From NCBI GenBank assembly GCA_963697165.1, contig CAVOMX010000025.1, positions 1 through 64,000 of the forward strand: a stretch of 64,000 nucleotides of DNA, read 5' to 3'. The notes below the pieces were generated by a model. The model was not told the origin of the DNA. It saw nothing but the letters and a program-made list of their open reading frames with translations, and ran no database searches. The translations under genes and the position numbers were made by a program. Shown one piece after another: positions 11,207-33,082 of this stretch. Each line of letters starts with the position of its first letter. The stretch's first letter is position 1. The stretch comes from Candidatus Bathyarchaeota archaeon (GTDB taxonomy: Archaea; Thermoproteota; Bathyarchaeia; Bathyarchaeales; Bathyarchaeaceae).

Positions 11207-11302
11207 GGGCCCGTGGCCTAGACAGGATAAGGCGTCGGCCTTCTAATCTCCAAAGAAGAAGAAAGCCGAAGATCCGGGGTTCAAATCCCCGCGGGTCCGC
11301 CA
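11207..11302 (+). tRNA. tRNA-Arg(TCT) with an 18-nt canonical 37/38 intron (11246-11263)
   Basis: GGGCCCG/CGGGTCC acceptor, TCGGC/GCCGA anticodon stem, TTCAAAT T-loop, encoded CCA; BHB helix CTTC/GAAG. Confidence 0.95.
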
Positions 11303-23685: not shown

Positions 23686-26372
23686 TTATTTTCGCTTTCT
23701 GAGTGCCCAGAAGCTGACTGCGCCGATGATGCTTGCTACTGCAACGGCTGCAATAATGGCTACTTCGGTGGTGATCAAAGGTGTTTCAGGCGTTGGCTCT
23801 GGTGTCGAAGGTGATGGTTCAGGTGTAGGTTCAGGCGTAGGTTGGTGTTGGTTGAGGTGTAGGTTCAGGCGTAGGCTCTGGCGTAGGTTCAGGCGTAGGT
23901 TCAGGCGTAGGCTCTGGCGTGGGCGTAGGTTCAGGTGTAGGCTCAGGTTCTATTGGTCCACTTGGTGTTGAAGCTGGACCAATCACTACAGCGGTCGTAG
24001 CAGCTGAACTTCCATACGAGTTGTCACCCGCAAAAGAGGCAATAATTTCGTACGTACCCTCTTCTGGAGCTATCCACGCATGATTGAAGGCACCATAATA
24101 TCCATTGCTTGTAACTGTCCCAATGTCTATTACTGAACCGTCTTCATCGATAGCTGTCAAGGTCACTGGAACACCGGTGATAATTCCATCACCTTTTACT
24201 CCAGCTTTTGGCTGCTGCATGTATAAGTACTCCATTTGCAATGTCATCGAATCCGCAGATACACATGGTGTGCCTGGCTGACCAGGAGACTGATCCAAAC
24301 ACTGTACCTTCTATCATCAGTGCTGTTCCCTTTGGTACGCTAGTCTTTGGTGCCGAAACAGTTGTAGTACTTTCACCCTTGCCAAAAACGTACATGTAGC
24401 CGTCATACGCGTTGGATATTGTAAGGTATCCGTCGGCTATAGCACCTTGGAATACGACGAGCACCATTGCCTAATCCAGTCTGACGTGCTGAATACATCC
24501 ATATTCCTTCACCTGTAGTGACGTTAATGGCGTGAATCTTCGAACCTCGTTTTATGGGTTGATCGGGCGAGTGCTCAGCATTAAATGCATAGAGTTTCCC
24601 GTCAGCAATCATCATAGGACTGTGCCAAGTGTGCACTGTTTGGCCATCAGAACCAGTAAAGGGAGTTTCATAGGGGAATTGCGCGTCAAACTCGTATGTC
24701 CATACTATTGTTCCGTCAGTCCAGTTAAGAGCAACAACAGCGTCGGGTTGACCTGAAATTATCATGCCGCCGTATGATGTTGAACCATAAGTTCCGAAAG
24801 TTCCCCATGGCCAAGTTGATGTCTCACTTACCCATAGCTTTTGTCCTGTAGTAGTATCCCAGCAATGCCAATGTCCGTCATTGTATCGTACAGCGAATTT
24901 TCCGTGGTCGGCAATTGAAGGGGTTCCTGAAGTGCCAAAAAGTGTATCAGTTTCGATGTCAACCAGAGTTTCACCTGTTATCAGACTTGCAGTCCTTATG
25001 CGACCAGCTTCACCTCTAACAGCGATGCCGGCTTCGTAATCTTGTGACCATATAACCTACTCCATGGGAAGCTAACGTTGCTTATTACCGTAAATTCGTA
25101 ATTGATTTGAAACACGCTAAGTCGTATTGCAGCTATGGTCCACTTGACCAAACTGTAGTTACCGCCGCCAAGGTTCTGCACGGTCAAGAAGAGACGATCT
25201 GAGATGTATTCACCTGAGGTTAACGGAGCAATCGAAATATTCTGGTAAACCGCCCCAGTCCATGGGTTATATTTTATCATCCTGCCGTTGCCTGTATACC
25301 CGAGAAAAACATCTGCAAAATAGGGTTCTGCCCCAACAACTTCTGCAGAGCCAGGGTCATACCAAATGAAAGTCGGTAGTTGAGTCGCCTGGTTTTTTTC
25401 CCAATACACTTCTCCGGTTCGCAGGTCGTAGCATTGCCAAACGGTAGTAGGTTGTCCATCAACGTATTTTACAATGTCCTGATAACATCTTCCAGCGAAG
25501 ATAATGTCGGGATGGCCGTTAATCAATTTATTTCCTTCCCAGAAACTTTGATATCCCATTGTACCTCCTACGAGACCACCCAAGGCAAATTGTCGTCTCC
25601 ATACTACGTGGGCAGTGTTTGGTCCTTGAACATACGGAACGAAACCATAACGATTTTGGGCGTATGCATTTGTGTTAGCTGGCCAGTAAGGCGGAGGACC
25701 CCCTCCCACTATACCAGTGGCAGGATAGTTTCCTAGAATTGGCCACCACTCTCGGTGTTCAGGCGAAACGGGTCGTGTCCAATAATCGGTTGGCAGTGGA
25801 GACTCAGGCCATGAGTAAACTATGTCTTCTTGAACCTCAAGCTCGTATGGTCCATCAGAACTTGGCATATAGTAACGGTTGTCTGCTTGGTTTGAACCTG
25901 TTGAATTTGTTACTATGTAACCATTATAGTATCTTCCTGCCGGGAAATACATCCCCAGAAAGTTAAACTGTAATGTCCAAGTACCGACCTGATCAACAAC
26001 ATACTCAAACCATGCTGTTGAGTCAGATATGTAGGAATCCACTGTAATGATATCTATGGTTCCGTCGGGTTTAGTGATTGTTACACTATGTGCTTGAATA
26101 AACTTTTGGCTGGCAGAAAGCACTTCAGTTTGTATCCACATGTTAACTAAAATTGGCTGTCCGACTCCTACGGGATCTGGCCTAAAGCTAAGGTATGAAA
26201 TTGTTTCAATTAATCTATCAGGTGTCACTCCTATCGGTATTGGTCCAGCAACGGGTTGTTCATCAGCAATTTGAGCCTGCACTGTATTGTTCGTCATTAG
26301 CATAAAAGTAGATAATGTCAAAATTACCATAATAATTATTGCAGTCATTTTAGTTTTGTTTATTGTTTTCAT
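23686..26372 (-). CDS. Secreted PQQ-like beta-propeller cell-surface protein with Pro/Thr linker and C-terminal TM anchor; about four frameshifts
   Basis: Signal peptide; propeller motifs CYDLRTGEVYW, CWDTTTGQKLW, AINVTTGEGIW; PEPT repeats; anchor ITTEVAIIAAVAVASIIGAVSFWALRKRK; shifts near 25050, 24455, 24298 and 23845. Confidence 0.82.
23787..23952 (-). repeat. 12-bp tandem repeat encoding a (PEPT)n linker
   Basis: Repeated GGTTCAGGCGTA / GGCTCTGGCGTA units on the + strand. Confidence 0.9.
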
Positions 26373-27199: not shown

Positions 27200-27781
27200 T
27201 TGAGGGTTTTAGAATTGGACAAATCGGAACTTGAGGTAGAGAAGAGCCCAGAAATTGAAATGCCTATCGGCGCTTCTCTGAAAGAAACAGAGGTCACTGT
27301 CTCTTCACAGGAGGGAATAGAAGAATTTTCGTCAAAAGGCTACGGCATCACTGAAGACAACAAGCTGCGCCTCACGTTCCATGAAACCCTGTTTCTTCTC
27401 GGCAAAGGAGCCATAGAAGTCAAAGACGAAAAAACAGGAAAGAAACTGATTTTTCAGGAACTACTCAAACGTTTCCAGTCCGTTGATAAAGACGCCTGGG
27501 TCAGATATCTTATTTACCGGGACCTGAGGAGCCGCGGATACGTGGCACGGGAAGGCTTCGGTCTGGGAATCGATTTTCGAGTCTATGAGCGTGGAGATTA
27601 CGGCAAAGGAACTGCCAAGCACCTCATTTTTGGCATACAGGAGGGGCAGCCTGTCTCCGTGGAGAAGCTGGCAAGAACTCAGCAGTATGTTCAGAACTTG
27701 AAGAAAAACTTGATTCTTGCGGTTATAAACCGTAGAGGCGAAATCGTTTACTATTCTCTTTCAGAGCTTAACCTAAAATAG
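27200..27781 (+). CDS. endA: tRNA-intron endonuclease subunit, probably the structural (non-catalytic) beta subunit
   Basis: YLIYRDLRSRGY...DFRVYERG fold motif; expected catalytic Tyr (GxKYG becomes GFGLG) and His positions are not conserved. Confidence 0.85.
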   Translation: MRVLELDKSELEVEKSPEIEMPIGASLKETEVTVSSQEGIEEFSSKGYGITEDNKLRLTFHETLFLLGKGAIEVKDEKTGKKLIFQELLKRFQSVDKDAWVRYLIYRDLRSRGYVAREGFGLGIDFRVYERGDYGKGTAKHLIFGIQEGQPVSVEKLARTQQYVQNLKKNLILAVINRRGEIVYYSLSELNLK

Positions 27782-27799
27782 CATGTTGGTGAGGGTGTA

Positions 27800-29092
27800 G
27801 TGTTCAAGACTGTTCGCGGAATGAGAGACCTTTTGCCCGTAGACGCTGAGAGAATGCGGCATGTCGAGCAGGTTTCTAGGACAATTTCTAAGTTGTATGG
27901 CTATGAGGAGATAATTACTCCAGTTTTGGAATCGTATGAGCTTTTGGCGGCTAAAACCAGCGAAGAAATCCGTGAACGAATGTACACCTTCAAGGACTTG
28001 GGGGACAGAAAGGTGGCTATGCGTCCAGAATTCACAGCATCTGTTGCCCGCTTGGTGGTTAACAAACTGAAAAATGAGCCGAAACCCATGCGGCTCTTTA
28101 GTGTAGGAAGTCTCTACCGCTACGACGAGCCACAGTATGGCAGGTTCAGAGAGTTTTGGCAATCAAACTACGAACTTTTCGGCTCAGAAAGACCAGAAGC
28201 AGACGCAGAAATCCTGATTCTCACAAACAATATTCTCAAGAAGCTGGGACTAAAGAATTATTGCTTCAAGATTGGGCACACAGGAATCCTCAGGGGAATA
28301 TTGACTCAGGAGGGACTGGATGACGAAAAACAGAATAGTGTCAGGCAGCTGCTGGACAAGAAACTTTGGGCTGACGCTCTTGAGGTTGCGCGTGAAGCAG
28401 GAGTTTCACAAAATGGTTTAGTGACTCTGGAGAGTCTCTTTGAAACAAAAGGTGAAGACATCTTTCAGGTCCTATCACAAATCAGAGACCGCATTCAAGG
28501 GTATGCGAGTGCTCTTGCTGCTGTAGATAATCTCTGGAGAATACTTGAGCTAATAAAAGACAGTGGAGAAGAACTAGAGGTAGTAGTGGAAGCGGGTTTC
28601 GCTAGGGGACTAGAATACTATACTGGAATGATTTTTGAGTCGTATGTTCCGGGGATCGATATTGCCTTAGGCGGAGGAGGACGCTACGACAAGCTGATTG
28701 AGCTCTTTGGAGGTGAACCTATTTCTGCAGTGGGAGTTGCCCAAGGAATCGACCGAATCGTTTTGGCGCTAACGAAACAGAATGTTGCCCAAGAAACAGC
28801 AAACGAGAATAGTGTTGCGGTCATCTCTGTAAAGGATGACTGTATGGCAAAGGTGCTGGAACTTTCTGCTACGCTTAGGAACTTGGGGTTACATGTGGAA
28901 GTTGCGGTTATGGGACGTTCCATCTCAAGGGCTTTAACTGATGCCAACAGAAGGGGCGTCGCCTACGCGGTTATTGTTGGTCCCAATGAGCTTAAGGAAG
29001 AGAAAGTGGTTCTGCGGGAGATGAAGAAGAGCACGCAACGAACTGTTCCAATCAGCGGTCTAGCTCAAGAGATTTTGGCGGGCTCGTCGTAG
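27800..29092 (+). CDS. hisS: Histidine--tRNA ligase
   Basis: RGMRD, RPEFTAS, YRYDEPQYGRFREF, RGLEYYTG, GGGRYD. Confidence 0.97.
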   Translation: MFKTVRGMRDLLPVDAERMRHVEQVSRTISKLYGYEEIITPVLESYELLAAKTSEEIRERMYTFKDLGDRKVAMRPEFTASVARLVVNKLKNEPKPMRLFSVGSLYRYDEPQYGRFREFWQSNYELFGSERPEADAEILILTNNILKKLGLKNYCFKIGHTGILRGILTQEGLDDEKQNSVRQLLDKKLWADALEVAREAGVSQNGLVTLESLFETKGEDIFQVLSQIRDRIQGYASALAAVDNLWRILELIKDSGEELEVVVEAGFARGLEYYTGMIFESYVPGIDIALGGGGRYDKLIELFGGEPISAVGVAQGIDRIVLALTKQNVAQETANENSVAVISVKDDCMAKVLELSATLRNLGLHVEVAVMGRSISRALTDANRRGVAYAVIVGPNELKEEKVVLREMKKSTQRTVPISGLAQEILAGSS

Positions 29093-30149
29093 TTTGGTCT
29101 TGCCTGTTTTTGCCTCTCTCTTTGATGGCTCTGGTTAGTTTAAGGGTACCTAAGGTTGTTATTGTTAGCCAGCCTAAAATTCCGAGAATGAGACTGAATA
29201 GAGTTACTGCGGTGGCGAAGGATGCTAATGTGGGGTATAATTCTGATAGTAAACTGAAGGTGTTGGTGTAGGCGTTGAAGAACCAGTGCATGATTATTGA
29301 TGCTTGGGCGCCGTAGAGCAGGTAACTTAAGCCTATAGCTAGTCCCGCGATTGTAGCGGAGGTGATTTTTCCGATTTCCCAACTGACTCCGGGGTTGAAG
29401 TGAGCCAAACCGAAGATTACTGATGTTAAAATGAGTGTGCCCCACTCGCCTATACTGATTCCTCTTTTTATTCCATGCTCGTTAACCGTTTTGGCCCCAA
29501 CAATTCTTTTGGCGCTGTCAGGAAACAGGAATGACACAAAAAGCAGTTTTACAGAAAACTGTGTTGTATTCTTTTTGATTATTAACAGGTAAATGAGTAG
29601 GAAGGCTCCGATTGGAATGATTCTGAAAACCACTTCTTCAACCACGGCAGCGTATGATAGGTCTAGGAAGTCCCAGAAGGGTTCTCCTGGCAAAGGGGAT
29701 GTTCCTGTTGGGATTCCTCCTGCTTCTTGGAGGCTTTGTAGGGATATTACAGCGAGTAATGTCATGCTGTTTAGGATGGGCATAGCAAAGAGGCAACTGT
29801 TGAAAAGTTTTCCTATGGGTCGAACAGTACTTTCTTTGATTACTTTGTGGAAGTTTTCTCTGAATTTCCAAGCTGCAACGAAGCACAGAGTGAAGGTGCT
29901 CCAGAGAACAAAAAAGAGTATGCCTATGCTTAGTCCTATTGGAACGAATATGGTTTGGTTGAAGAACCATACGGGCAGAGCTGACAGGCGAAGGATGCTG
30001 GTGCTTAGTCCTTCTGGAGTGAAATAGAACAATGCTGGCCCCAACACGATTGCGAGGAGATACAGGAAAACCGTGAAGATCACTGTGATTACGAGAAACA
30101 GTTTGGCAAACATTTTCAATGCTTCTGACATCATTGGCGGCTGCTCCAC
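29052..30149 (-). CDS. CPBP (CAAX/Abi) family intramembrane metalloprotease
   Basis: EEVVFR, FGLAH, HWFFN motifs; multiple TM helices. Confidence 0.88.
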   Translation of the reverse strand: MEQPPMMSEALKMFAKLFLVITVIFTVFLYLLAIVLGPALFYFTPEGLSTSILRLSALPVWFFNQTIFVPIGLSIGILFFVLWSTFTLCFVAAWKFRENFHKVIKESTVRPIGKLFNSCLFAMPILNSMTLLAVISLQSLQEAGGIPTGTSPLPGEPFWDFLDLSYAAVVEEVVFRIIPIGAFLLIYLLIIKKNTTQFSVKLLFVSFLFPDSAKRIVGAKTVNEHGIKRGISIGEWGTLILTSVIFGLAHFNPGVSWEIGKITSATIAGLAIGLSYLLYGAQASIIMHWFFNAYTNTFSLLSELYPTLASFATAVTLFSLILGILGWLTITTLGTLKLTRAIKERGKNRQDQTTTSPPKSLELDR

Positions 30150-30561
30150 GCGCGTATATTAAACAGCTAAACAGTAATTAACTTATTCAAACAGTCCAGA
30201 GAATCAAACGGAACTATTTCAGAACATCAAGGAAGGAATTCAAATTTCTTAATTCTGGTCTTGCACTTAAAAAGCTAGATAATCAGGCAGTTTTCCACAA
30301 CATTAGGCCGATGAGGCAAATTCATCCGAACAAACATACACAAACAACAAAACACAAACAGAAGACTCGCTCCACCCAAACCAACCCCAAAAATAGAACA
30401 CCAACAAAAGAAGGCGAAAGTGGCTGGAGACACGCCAAACAACTCTAAACCATTCTTCAACAAAACCAAGTTCTCCAACATCTTCTTCCAAACAGAACTA
30501 ATTTTCATTCATACCACACAAAAAACAATTCTCAACCAACCACCAAAAAGCCAGTTATGGA

Positions 30562-30707
30562 TGGCGGGCGGGACGGGACTCGAACCCGTGACCCCGAGCT
30601 CACTCCCTTTTCCCGGTTAGGAGGCTTACACCGACATTTTAGGTCGTTCGTGCCCTATCCAAGCTAGGCTTCGGTAGAAAGCTGAAATGCGCTCTCTATA
30701 CCCGCCC
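30562..30707 (-). tRNA. tRNA-Arg(CCT) with three introns (9/10: 30670-30698; 29/30: 30626-30647; 37/38: 30601-30617)
   Basis: Removing the three inserts gives a fully paired 78-nt cloverleaf GGGCGGG UA GCCU AGCUUGGAUA GGGC A CGAGC CU CCU AA GCUCG GGGUC ACGGG UUCGAGU CCCGU CCCGCCC G CCA; each junction folds as a BHB. Confidence 0.9.
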
Positions 30708-30918
30708 AGTGTTTTCCCGCCAAACTATGTCTTACATATTGACTTTTATAACCATAACGCCAAAAGAAAAGCAGCAAAAACAACCATCGAGTTACGTTGT
30801 GGCTCCAAAAACAAAACAAATTCACTCAAAAGAGGAAACGCCAACGACTAGAGAATGCGTAACTATCTCTCTTGTCGGGTAACATTTATGTCGAAGTTGC
30901 GGTGTGAATATGGAGGTG

Positions 30919-31036
30919 GCGGGGGTACCCGAGCCAGGTCTAATTAGCGGGTCAAATAGATCCCCTAGGAAAAGGGGGAGGACTTAAGATCCTCTGGCGC
31001 AGGCCTCCACGGGTTCAAATCCCGTCCCCCGCACCA
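30919..31036 (+). tRNA. tRNA-Leu(TAA) with a ~30-nt D-arm intron (about 30944-30973)
   Basis: GCGGGGG/CCCCCGC acceptor, GAGGA CT TAA GA TCCTC anticodon arm, long variable arm, A73, CCA; the insert forms hairpin TAGCGGGTC/GATCCCCTA. Confidence 0.92.
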
Positions 31037-31269
31037 GCGGATTTCTTGGCTAATGGTATTTTTTGATAAAAATTTTAGTCAAATAACCTTAATTGTCTAC
31101 ATTTCCTATTCTGAACTGATTAAGCATGGATATTGATTTTTCTCTCCATAAAATTTTAAAGGATTCAACCAGACGAGAGATTCTCTTACGTTTCGTCTGA
31201 AGTGCCCCGCTAACTTGCATGGAACGTATGGACCTCAAAAAAATCAAGAACACTGGCAGATTATGAGAG

Positions 31270-31346
31270 TGGCGCCGCCGGAAGGACTCGAACCTTCGAC
31301 CCACGAGTTAACAGCCCGTTGCTCTACCGAACTGAGCTACGGCGGC
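31270..31346 (-). tRNA. tRNA-Asn(GTT)
   Basis: GCCGCCG acceptor, ACGGG CT GTT AA CTCGT, TTCGAGT, encoded CCA. Confidence 0.96.
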
Positions 31347-31508
31347 TCAATCAACAAATTGAGTGATGACGCTATTCTGAGAATTTGTGGCGCTATTTAA
31401 GTTTAATCGACCAAACAGCAGCCTAGCCAATTCACAGTCCAGAATAACAAGGAATCGAGTATAGAATAGAATAAATTCTGCCCCGAAAAATACAGTTACA
31501 GAGCATAG

Positions 31509-31793
31509 ATGAAAGTCGAAGTTAAGTTTTTCACTTCTCTGCGGGAAATAACAGGCAAGAAAGTGGACGAAATCCAGCTGCAGAACACAGTCACCGTCAA
31601 TGAACTTGTTACGTTGCTCTCTGAAAAATACGGCAAAAACTTCAGAGAATACATCTACAACAAGAAGGGAGACGTGCAGGAATTCCTCTCATTTCTCGTA
31701 AACGGCAAAAACATAAACATCATGCAAGGATTCGACACAAAACTACAAGAAGGCAATGTTGTTGCGATTCTTCCTCCAATAGGCGGAGGCTAA
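31509..31793 (+). CDS. MoaD/ThiS family ubiquitin-like protein (SAMP-like)
   Basis: VKFFTSLREITG...VAILPPIGGG with C-terminal diglycine. Confidence 0.92.
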   Translation: MKVEVKFFTSLREITGKKVDEIQLQNTVTVNELVTLLSEKYGKNFREYIYNKKGDVQEFLSFLVNGKNINIMQGFDTKLQEGNVVAILPPIGGG

Positions 31794-31795
31794 CT

Positions 31796-33082
31796 TCACG
31801 CTATTTCGGCTTCAAGATATGTAGAGAAGACATTAACAACCCGAACCTGAACAAACCTGCCCAACAAACGCTCACGGGTCTTAACTACAACAGGCTTGTA
31901 AGCAAAGTTTCTTCCCATCCAAGACTCACCTTTACCTTTCTCATCAAACAAAACTGTTCCCTGCCAGCCCAGCCACGCCCTGTTCTTCTCAAAAGAAATC
32001 CGCTTAGACAATTCTGCCAGCTCCCTACTCCTTCGGTTCAGCTCTCTTGGAGGAATGGGAAGCAGCTTCTCTGCGGGAGTACGCGGTCTAGAAAAGAATT
32101 TTGACACATTAACAATGTCAGGCTTAATCTCAGCTATAAGCCTCTTTGTCTGGTCAAAAGCTTCTTTGCTCTCTCCGGGAAAACCGCAAATAACATCCGT
32201 CGAAAGTGTTAACCTTGGAATCTCTTCCCTGAAAATCTGAACAACATTCGTGAACTCCTCTACAGTGTAACGCCGATTCATTAGCCTAAGAACCTTATCG
32301 TCGCCGCTTTGGACAGGCAGATGTAGAAACTTGAAAACCTTCTTGCATTTGTATGCTTCAACGAGTTCATCAAGCATACCCAACACATGATCAGGATTCA
32401 TCATCCCTAAACGAACAAAAAAGTCGCCTTCAACATCACAGACTCTCCCCAACAAATCCACAAGGCTACTGCCGATGTCTTTCCCGTAACATGCCGTATC
32501 CTGAGAAGTCAACCAAAACTCCTTAACTCCAGAAACCAAATCCCGCCTCACCCGCTCAACAATTTCGTGAACAGGATTACTTCTCAGATGTCCCCTAGCA
32601 AAATGAACACAACAATAAGAACAGTCGCCTAAACAGCCATAATTGATTGGAACAACGCTTACAAGAGGATTAACAGGAACCCGTGGAAGATACAAATCAG
32701 AACTTGAAGTGGCTCCCAAAGAAATAACATTCTCTCCAGCAGCCACATGACCCAAAACGTCAACGATTTTGGCGCCCGGCGCTGGACCCGTTATCCCATC
32801 AAACTCGACCTCGTTCTCTAAGCGCTCAAAATTTATCACAGGCAAACAACCCGTCACTATTAGTCGCTTGTCTTTTGGCGCCTTTCGTAAAATGTCTACG
32901 ATACGGTTTTCTGTTTGAGATTTAACCGCGCACGTGTTGTAAACCAAGAATTCTGCGTCTTTAGGATTCTTAACGACCTCAAATCCAGCCTCTGAAAGAC
33001 ATCCTGCTATGACTTCCCCATCCGCAAGATTTGCTGAACACCCGAAACTCTTAATGTAAACCCGTTTAGACTTTTCAACCAT
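31796..33082 (-). CDS. tRNA t6A37 methylthiotransferase (archaeal MiaB-like / e-MtaB)
   Basis: UPF0004 (GCSAN, NTCAVK, TGC), radical SAM CLGDCSYC, HLPVQSG, TRAM domain. Confidence 0.92.
   Translation of the reverse strand: MVEKSKRVYIKSFGCSANLADGEVIAGCLSEAGFEVVKNPKDAEFLVYNTCAVKSQTENRIVDILRKAPKDKRLIVTGCLPVINFERLENEVEFDGITGPAPGAKIVDVLGHVAAGENVISLGATSSSDLYLPRVPVNPLVSVVPINYGCLGDCSYCCVHFARGHLRSNPVHEIVERVRRDLVSGVKEFWLTSQDTACYGKDIGSSLVDLLGRVCDVEGDFFVRLGMMNPDHVLGMLDELVEAYKCKKVFKFLHLPVQSGDDKVLRLMNRRYTVEEFTNVVQIFREEIPRLTLSTDVICGFPGESKEAFDQTKRLIAEIKPDIVNVSKFFSRPRTPAEKLLPIPPRELNRRSRELAELSKRISFEKNRAWLGWQGTVLFDEKGKGESWMGRNFAYKPVVVKTRERLLGRFVQVRVVNVFSTYLEAEIA

Follow-up and report, generated by a model that had tools for sequence, protein, structure and literature searches.

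Can a tRNA precursor be spliced at a site whose splice motif is built from the acceptor stem itself? The question is raised by a tRNA-Arg(CCT) gene in the 64,000-nucleotide stretch of Candidatus Bathyarchaeota DNA that was analysed here (hereafter the window). The gene lies on the minus strand (30707-30562) and comprises four exons and three introns, the first of which is located at position 9/10 of the tRNA.

Gene structure, orthologues and host machinery

Exon 1 covers tRNA nucleotides 1-9 (30699..30707) and is delimited by the spliced cloverleaf and the orthologues. Intron 1 at position 9/10 is 29 nt long (30670..30698). Exon 2 (nucleotides 10-29, 30648..30669) contains the D arm, and intron 2 at position 29/30 is 22 nt long (30626..30647). 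Exon 3 (nucleotides 30-37, 30618..30625) carries the anticodon CCT. It is followed by intron 3 at the canonical position 37/38 (17 nt, 30601..30617) and by exon 4 (nucleotides 38-76, 30562..30600) with a genome-encoded CCA. All these features are on the minus strand, and exons 2 and 4 follow from the spliced cloverleaf.

The initial annotation, which gave no strand, had proposed a tRNA-Arg(CCT) with introns at these three positions and a perfect cloverleaf after excision of 29, 22, and 17 nt. ARAGORN recognizes the spliced 78-nt product as tRNA-Arg(CCT) and finds complete pairing in each of the four stems, which, together with the intron-free orthologues, bears out both claims. A Phe identity obtained with ARAGORN at a low threshold was a misreading of the same gene. 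As the four exons are colinear on one strand, with neither separate nor reversed halves, the gene is not a split or permuted tRNA gene.

The locus was found in 23 of the 24 genomes of the same genus and in several others; second matches in the same-genus genomes were 31-nt T-arm matches only. The orthologues L027, L029, and L030 are intron-free and differ from the spliced product at a few positions, and ARAGORN calls L027 as tRNA-Arg(cct). L028 has the 9/10 intron alone, as does L068 when read by eye, and L062 and L065 have the 9/10 and 29/30 introns. The alignment of orthologues, proposed as a check in the initial annotation, thus delimits each intron exactly. Among the parsed Arg(CCT) genes, 27 have all three introns, two have 9/10 and 29/30, one has 9/10 only, one has 29/30 and 37/38, three have 37/38 only, and 11 have none; three more genes were unparsed. 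In L024 (genome G001), the 9/10 intron is precisely absent, and its two remaining introns have nearly the same sequence as in L012. This comparison suggests a recent precise loss of the 9/10 intron. Across the orthologues, the exons are nearly invariant and the intron loops drift, while the intron stems stay paired through compensatory changes.

A second Arg(CCT) gene, which the initial annotation had regarded as a possible refutation, was not found in the source genome (G000, 81% complete). A single-intron Arg(CCT) call by ARAGORN on contig C11 proved on inspection to have no tRNA arms and is missing from the T-arm census. The anticodon-arm motif has four further matches in G000, all of them away from tRNA loci. 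A DNA-type contig from the sequencing run X3 matches 30510-30736 with a single difference, which is located outside the gene. In contigs from four sequencing runs, no joint matched a splice junction, although such contigs alone are uninformative on splicing; the single contig of an RNA run across the gene is unspliced and continues into the promoter. We consider the three-intron gene almost certainly real.

Genes related to tRNA processing were identified in the host. A beta-like subunit of the splicing endonuclease, which has neither the catalytic Tyr nor the catalytic His, is encoded in the window (27200..27781, plus strand). A catalytic EndA alpha subunit with Y115, H130, and K161 is encoded on contig C15 (L031:1228-1785). 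Its loop K39-P40-K41 falls on the CSL in an alignment with the solved enzyme 3p1z; CSL residues of a solved crenarchaeal-type EndA are described in the accessible part of PMC12397907. With these two EndA genes, G000 is predicted to form an (alpha-beta)2 enzyme with CSL. An archaeal RNase P RNA is present in the source genome. The rtcB gene (G000:C12:146531-147843, L267) is spread over three reading frames by two frameshifts in the assembly, and an ORF at window 24996-26372 ends abruptly; both may be assembly indel errors.

Further tRNA features were noted in the source genome. At window 27200-33082, a tRNA cluster lies among the genes of the beta-like EndA subunit, a histidyl-tRNA synthetase, a ThiS/Urm1-like protein, and an archaeal-type t6A37 methylthiotransferase. 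A tRNA-Leu(TAA) gene with a D-loop intron of about 30 nt (window 30919-31036, plus strand) is divergent from the Arg gene; it was missed in one ARAGORN run and misread as Pyl in another. By eye, we also recognized a multi-intron Ser(GGA) gene with an intron early in the D loop (G000:C10 near 31231-31372, plus strand) and a multi-intron Tyr(GTA) gene (G000:C25 near 87992-88146, minus strand). Contigs C12 and C14 of G000 carry near-identical copies of Ala(GGC), Val(GAC), Val(CAC), and Phe(GAA) with the same leaders, which reflect duplication or assembly redundancy.

Occurrence of 9/10 introns and their splice motif

A search of all GTDB species with the Arg-type 9/10 pattern gave 41 stretches, 40 from Bathyarchaeota, Bathyarchaeia, or Ca. 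Bathyarchaeum and one from a Thermoproteota archaeon. The named Ca. Bathyarchaeum records have a three-intron layout identical to that of this gene. The Thermoproteales context given in the initial annotation has to be corrected, as the host belongs to the Bathyarchaeia. Within the 401 genomes of the class, the Arg pattern matched in 34 genomes, with 0 control matches there and 8 in others. The same pattern also uncovered 9/10 introns in tRNA-Arg(CCG); three of its matches (L049, L066, and L067) could not be completed to a tRNA.

A pattern for acceptor stems starting with GGGCC matched 95 of the 401 class genomes in 115 rows, of which 70 loci were examined (30 given and 40 picked before the leaders were visible). 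Of these, 61 are tRNA genes interrupted at 9/10; they encode Lys(CTT), Lys(TTT), and a tRNA with the anticodon CAT, which we take to be probably Ile2 from its start sequence. Seven loci were left out as they are not 9/10 tRNA genes, one because a contig end cuts the leader (L165), and one because of masked bases (L194); L165 and L194 each have a GGCGGG leader. In 251 genomes of the phylum, carriers outside the class occur only in family f57 (3/3 genomes, five Lys genes), and nine matches outside f57 are not 9/10 introns. These results apply to search patterns that fix the first nine bases, with the Arg pattern alone used beyond the phylum.

The collection contains 112 distinct 9/10 genes (31 Arg(CCT), 15 Arg(CCG), 32 Lys(CTT), 15 Lys(TTT), and 19 CAT) from 13 families of the Bathyarchaeia and from f57. 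They are related and hence do not represent 112 independent events, and gene conversion between tRNAs with identical 5' ends is possible. The initial annotation had considered 9/10 not commonly reported. This agrees with the literature searched, but the site is not a one-off, as it recurs in five tRNA species. Among the Lys genes, L146-L166, L182-L183, L253-L254, and L264-L265 include members with extra introns, one of them near the border of anticodon stem and variable loop, and L182 and L183 apparently have four introns each. L196-L198 represent a single genome with 9/10 introns in three tRNAs.

Every helix and bulge previously described for the splice motifs (BHBs) of the three introns was found in the sequence. 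The 9/10 BHB has a central helix of 3 pairs with a G7.A mismatch, an inner helix of 7 bp, and an outer helix of 5 bp, which is extended by the leader nucleotides -2 and -1 (30708..30709, minus strand). The 29/30 BHB has a central helix of 4 bp, an inner helix of 4 bp with compensatory changes, and an outer helix of 3 bp. The central helix of the 37/38 BHB also has 4 bp, and its inner part is poorly paired. Thus, the 29/30 and 37/38 introns have the 4-bp central helix of the canonical hBHBh' form, which the 9/10 intron of this gene lacks. The latter has two 3-nt bulges, three central pairs, and flanking helices, and since position 7 is G.A in 31/31 Arg(CCT) genes, we assign it to the relaxed BHB class.

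Compensatory changes across orthologues affect the central and inner helices of the 9/10 BHB. In the 112 distinct genes, central-helix position 4 is C-G in all 112; position 5 is G-C in 44, G.U in 2, C-G in 63, and mismatched in 3; position 6 is G-C in 43, G.U in 3, and C-G in 66. Position 7 is paired in 75/112 (G-C in 74, G.U in 1) and G.A in 37. The intron strand reads ACCG or CCCG opposite the exon sequence CGGG, and CGGG opposite CCCG (58/61). As the intron strand tracks exon nucleotides 4-7 and the changes are two-sided, the register is fixed at 9/10.

The 9/10 BHB uses acceptor-stem nucleotides 1-7 and D-stem nucleotides 11-15. Hence, the acceptor stem has to open, and the competition between the first BHB and the acceptor stem that the initial annotation had pointed out stands. 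It had also stated that exon 3 is needed by both adjoining BHBs and that splicing is therefore ordered. The 29/30 and 37/38 BHBs do share C31, C32, and U33, which makes them mutually exclusive and implies splicing one at a time, but the sequence fixes no order. The 9/10 and 29/30 BHBs both open the D stem; they have no nucleotide in common and are thus able to coexist.

A leader strand complementary to the 3' acceptor strand

The leader of the gene contains the strand GGCGGG (nucleotides -14 to -9, 30716..30721, minus strand), a putative placeholder at the predicted transcription start. It was absent from the initial annotation and was found in this analysis. The strand is complementary to tRNA nucleotides 70-75 or 66-71, and the pairing extends to 7 bp, up to nucleotide 76, if U-15 (30722) is transcribed. 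An attachment duplication of an integrative element was considered and rejected: the repeat is 6-10 nt long and lies 0-10 nt from +1 within the leader, with nothing inserted between the copies.

A TATA-like box, the putative promoter (30746..30751, minus strand), starts 44 nt ahead of tRNA +1; its distance to the leader element downstream is 30 nt. In 30 of the 31 Arg(CCT) 9/10 genes, a TATA-like match is found 29-33 nt from the element (exactly 30 nt in 23) and starts 42-45 nt ahead of +1; these spacings were taken from the Arg(CCT) rows only, with L223 left out. A similar box lies 29-37 nt ahead of +1 in 13/16 intron-free orthologues other than L024. The spacing from promoter to element is nearly fixed, and that from element to +1 is variable. 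Judged by archaeal promoter spacing, the box places the element where the start site usually is, so the element likely forms the 5' end of the transcript. The f35/g127 Arg(CCG) genes have, as read by eye, a single clear TATA-like box about 90-95 nt upstream, and hence the element there is not bound to the start site. The leaders of these genes (L033-L041) seem to be about 65 nt long, with possible hairpins upstream of the element.

The element accompanies the intron. In all of the first 45 Arg genes with a 9/10 intron, GGCGG occurs within 30 nt and six or more Watson-Crick pairs to nucleotides 66-76 are possible; among 27 genes without the intron, this holds for one only (L024). Of 40 intron-free rows read by eye, L024 was again the only one with the element. 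In a shuffle test, the 25-nt leader was paired with the 3' end of its own gene and compared with 100 shuffles; 56 intron-free genes with shared 5' ends, which are part of 160 matches, served as controls. Pairing to the gene's own nucleotides 66-76 exceeded 95% of the shuffles in 108/112 intron genes versus 5/56 intron-free genes. With a cut-off of -11 kcal/mol, which was set post hoc, the numbers are 110/112 versus 6/56, the latter including L024 and L071. Median duplex energies of the leaders are -16.4 and -19.3 kcal/mol in intron genes versus -2.2 and -5.0 kcal/mol in intron-free genes.

Leader and splice helix vary together with the acceptor and discriminator sequence. All 19 genes with the anticodon CAT, which have A73, carry a leader of the type GGG(C/U)(C/U)C, and GGCGG occurs in none of them (0/19). 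GGCGG is present in 28/32 Lys(CTT) genes, 31 of which have G73. Here, the element is the complement of nucleotides 71-75 and no copy of exon 1, which begins with GGGCCCG. The pairing register covers nucleotides 70-76 in the source genus and in most Lys(CTT) genes; in many genes, it covers 66-72/73 and leaves the CCA free.

Several single cases were observed. The Lys(CTT) gene L196 (G064:C3:11000-11290) has a 9/10 intron and no acceptor-directed element; its leader instead contains a 10-nt complement of nucleotides 23-32, i.e., of the 3' strand of the D stem and the 5' strand of the anticodon stem, and may solve the same folding problem in a second way. L024 has kept the element (8 bp) although its 9/10 intron is missing; provided that L024 is functional, maturation thus appears to be possible in the presence of the element. 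The intron-free Lys(CTT) gene L071 (G034) has GGGCGG in its leader (-15.2 kcal/mol), either as a chance match or as a relic of a lost intron. The leaders of the Ser(GGA) and Tyr(GTA) genes contain no acceptor-directed element and pair over at most 3 bp.

Folding energies were computed with ViennaRNA and refer to secondary structure only. Constrained energies were used since the unconstrained pair probabilities did not give the BHB the status of a main fold. Forcing the 9/10 BHB over the acceptor stem costs a median of +8.9 kcal/mol with an overwritten element and -1.2 kcal/mol with an intact one, and the predicted cost falls with the element in 45/45 Arg genes. Part of this gain is trivial, as help is expected from any complementary strand. 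Even with the element, the exact BHB is not the MFE structure and lies a median of 5.4 kcal/mol above it, with a median pair probability of 0.005. In the MFE of the window gene, the leader is placed on nucleotides 70-75 and exon 1 on the intron and a D-stem strand, one step off the BHB register.

After splicing and with the arms enforced, the native fold differs from the displaced fold by a median of -0.7 kcal/mol (range -8.3 to +4.2, n = 23); for the window gene, the two folds are computed to be 0.1 kcal/mol apart. When intron 1 alone is removed and folding is unconstrained, native acceptor pairing is almost nil in the model. The release step thus likely depends on tertiary folding and RNase P, which are outside the folding model.

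Proposed role of the leader and relation to known systems

The gene structure, its conservation and covariation, and the association of intron and leader were observed, and the folding energies were computed. The start site, the cleavage at the three sites, the sequence of steps, and the pairing of the leader in vivo are inferred. In the reading that we prefer, with a probability of roughly two in three, the leader strand holds the 3' acceptor strand and thereby lets the 9/10 BHB form. The gene would be functional: a two-subunit CSL-type EndA would cut its three BHB introns, and the exons would be ligated to give tRNA-Arg(CCT). The 5' end of its transcript would be a short strand complementary to the 3' acceptor strand. 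Placed on nucleotides 66-76, it would free exon 1 for the BHB and keep the true RNase P site unformed, so that splicing would precede RNase P trimming. EndA and ligase would then remove intron 1. From that point, exon 1 and the placeholder would be nearly even competitors for the 3' strand, and exon 1 would displace the leader; tertiary folding and the irreversible RNase P cleavage at +1 would fix the mature fold.

The leader might instead act mainly as a timer which blocks RNase P or 3' maturation until intron 1 is gone, with EndA capturing the BHB unaided. The strand would cover the discriminator and CCA and displace exon 1, the register spans nucleotides 70-76 in the source genus and in most Lys(CTT) genes, and pairing of a leader with RCCA inhibits bacterial RNase P according to the accessible part of PMC9433436. 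In Methanopyrus, as far as the available text of PMC3695527 describes, the ends are trimmed before splicing, which here would remove the outer-helix nucleotides -1 and -2. However, the register in many genes leaves the CCA free, and the BHB is computed to be about 9 kcal/mol costlier without the element. We therefore regard a timer as the main role as unlikely; the two roles overlap and are non-exclusive. More improbable is that the leader element has no role in splicing and was inherited together with the intron, either as a neutral relic left by a tandem duplication of the 5' end or simply as a G-rich start-site sequence. An exact 10-nt tandem copy in the leaders of L034 and L036, the position of the element at the predicted start site in Arg(CCT) genes, its presence in L024 without the intron, and the commonly G-rich leaders of M. 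kandleri (available text of PMC3695527) are in line with this reading. Against it, the element has been conserved across 14 families, while the spacer next to it varies in length and sequence. The element is mostly missing from intron-free genes, switches with base 73, complements nucleotides 71-75 in Lys(CTT) genes instead of copying exon 1, and by eye lies away from the start site in the f35/g127 Arg(CCG) genes.

Cleavage of the first intron in another register (8/9 or the MFE-shifted helix), or by a route other than EndA, is very improbable. The window intron has A at both ends, so 8/9 would yield the identical product here, and the MFE does contain a shifted pairing. In many orthologues, however, 8/9 fails, as exon 1 ends in A and the last intron base is A, C, T, or G, and the central-helix covariation is compatible with nucleotides 4-7 only. 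tRNA-Arg(TCT) can read AGG by wobble, and such a gene is present in the window (11207-11302, plus strand) with an 18-nt canonical intron. The Arg(CCT) gene could then be an unspliced pseudogene, spliced RNA being unseen in the run contigs and the genome being 81% complete. We give this very little credence: the exons are almost invariant while intron loops drift and intron stems compensate, the promoter is conserved, and G000 yielded no other Arg(CCT) gene.

Multi-intron tRNA genes as such are known. In the accessible text of PMC4090602, tRNA genes of the Thermoproteales contain as many as three BHB introns each, also at non-canonical sites, and positions 29/30 and 3/4 are known; this confirms the statement of the initial annotation that 29/30 is a known site. 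The window gene resembles them, within the parts of these sources available, in its short BHB introns, in having three per gene, in the sites 29/30 and 37/38, in an (alpha-beta)2-type EndA with a CSL loop, and in close-set introns that are removed successively (also 10.1101/614032). In contrast, the host belongs to the Bathyarchaeia, position 9/10 is absent from the list in the text of PMC4090602 (figure excluded), which ends with "etc.", and a leader strand pairing with the 3' acceptor is not mentioned in that text. A further published multi-intron tRNA system is similar in that there are several introns per gene, many of them non-canonical, and annotators systematically miss them; the main text of that paper does not contain the words "leader" and "Bathyarch". 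An Asgard preprint mentions, in the part available, a few introns in "acceptor stem and junctions."

In split and permuted tRNAs (Nanoarchaeum, Caldivirga, Thermofilum, and Cyanidioschyzon; accessible text of PMC3218864 and PMC4033280), pairing of the leader also sets up the EndA substrate. There, leader and trailer pair together and form the BHB that is cut, whereas the window gene is a single contiguous locus; its leader element is no part of the BHB, is complementary to the body of the mature tRNA, and is presumably removed by RNase P. Bacterial pairing of the leader with the 3' RCCA is similar in that a leader on the tRNA 3' end can slow RNase P (PMC9433436, text in part). In that text, however, nucleotides -1 and -2 extend an intact acceptor stem, with no link to splicing, whereas 6-11 bp displace the acceptor 5' strand in our case. 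The order proposed here is the reverse of that in Methanopyrus, where the available text of PMC3695527 has end trimming first. Triple-intron tRNA genes and position 29/30 are thus already known. The accessible texts of the literature searched, figures excluded and the string "9/10" being unsearchable, gave no 9/10 site, no leader that pairs with the 3' acceptor and permits splicing, and no study of tRNA introns in Bathyarchaeia. We lean slightly towards an undescribed cis-acting RNA device in Bathyarchaeia and one neighbouring lineage, in which a leader placeholder swaps into the acceptor stem, makes the forbidden 9/10 site usable and common, and reverses the order of trimming then splicing. 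The leader strand tracks acceptor and discriminator in five tRNA species, and the device may have more than one origin.

Standard annotation may miss this gene, as suspected initially, and both ARAGORN and Rfam do. Of ten loci submitted to ARAGORN, one served as an intron-free control; eight of the others went undetected, and the ninth was called in a shortened 74-nt form. As 9/10 genes are missed or misread by ARAGORN, the tRNA sets of these genomes may look incomplete when they are complete.

The persistence of tRNA introns is thought to hinge on whether the surrounding tRNA permits BHB formation. A 9/10 intron must dismantle the acceptor stem, yet such introns are common among Bathyarchaeia, for which the leader strand provides an explanation that can be tested. 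If the proposed role is true, precursor leaders would act as built-in folding helpers that order splicing and RNase P cleavage. This suggests a route to new intron sites, by which a short duplication or a complementary strand in the leader would open a position to splicing.
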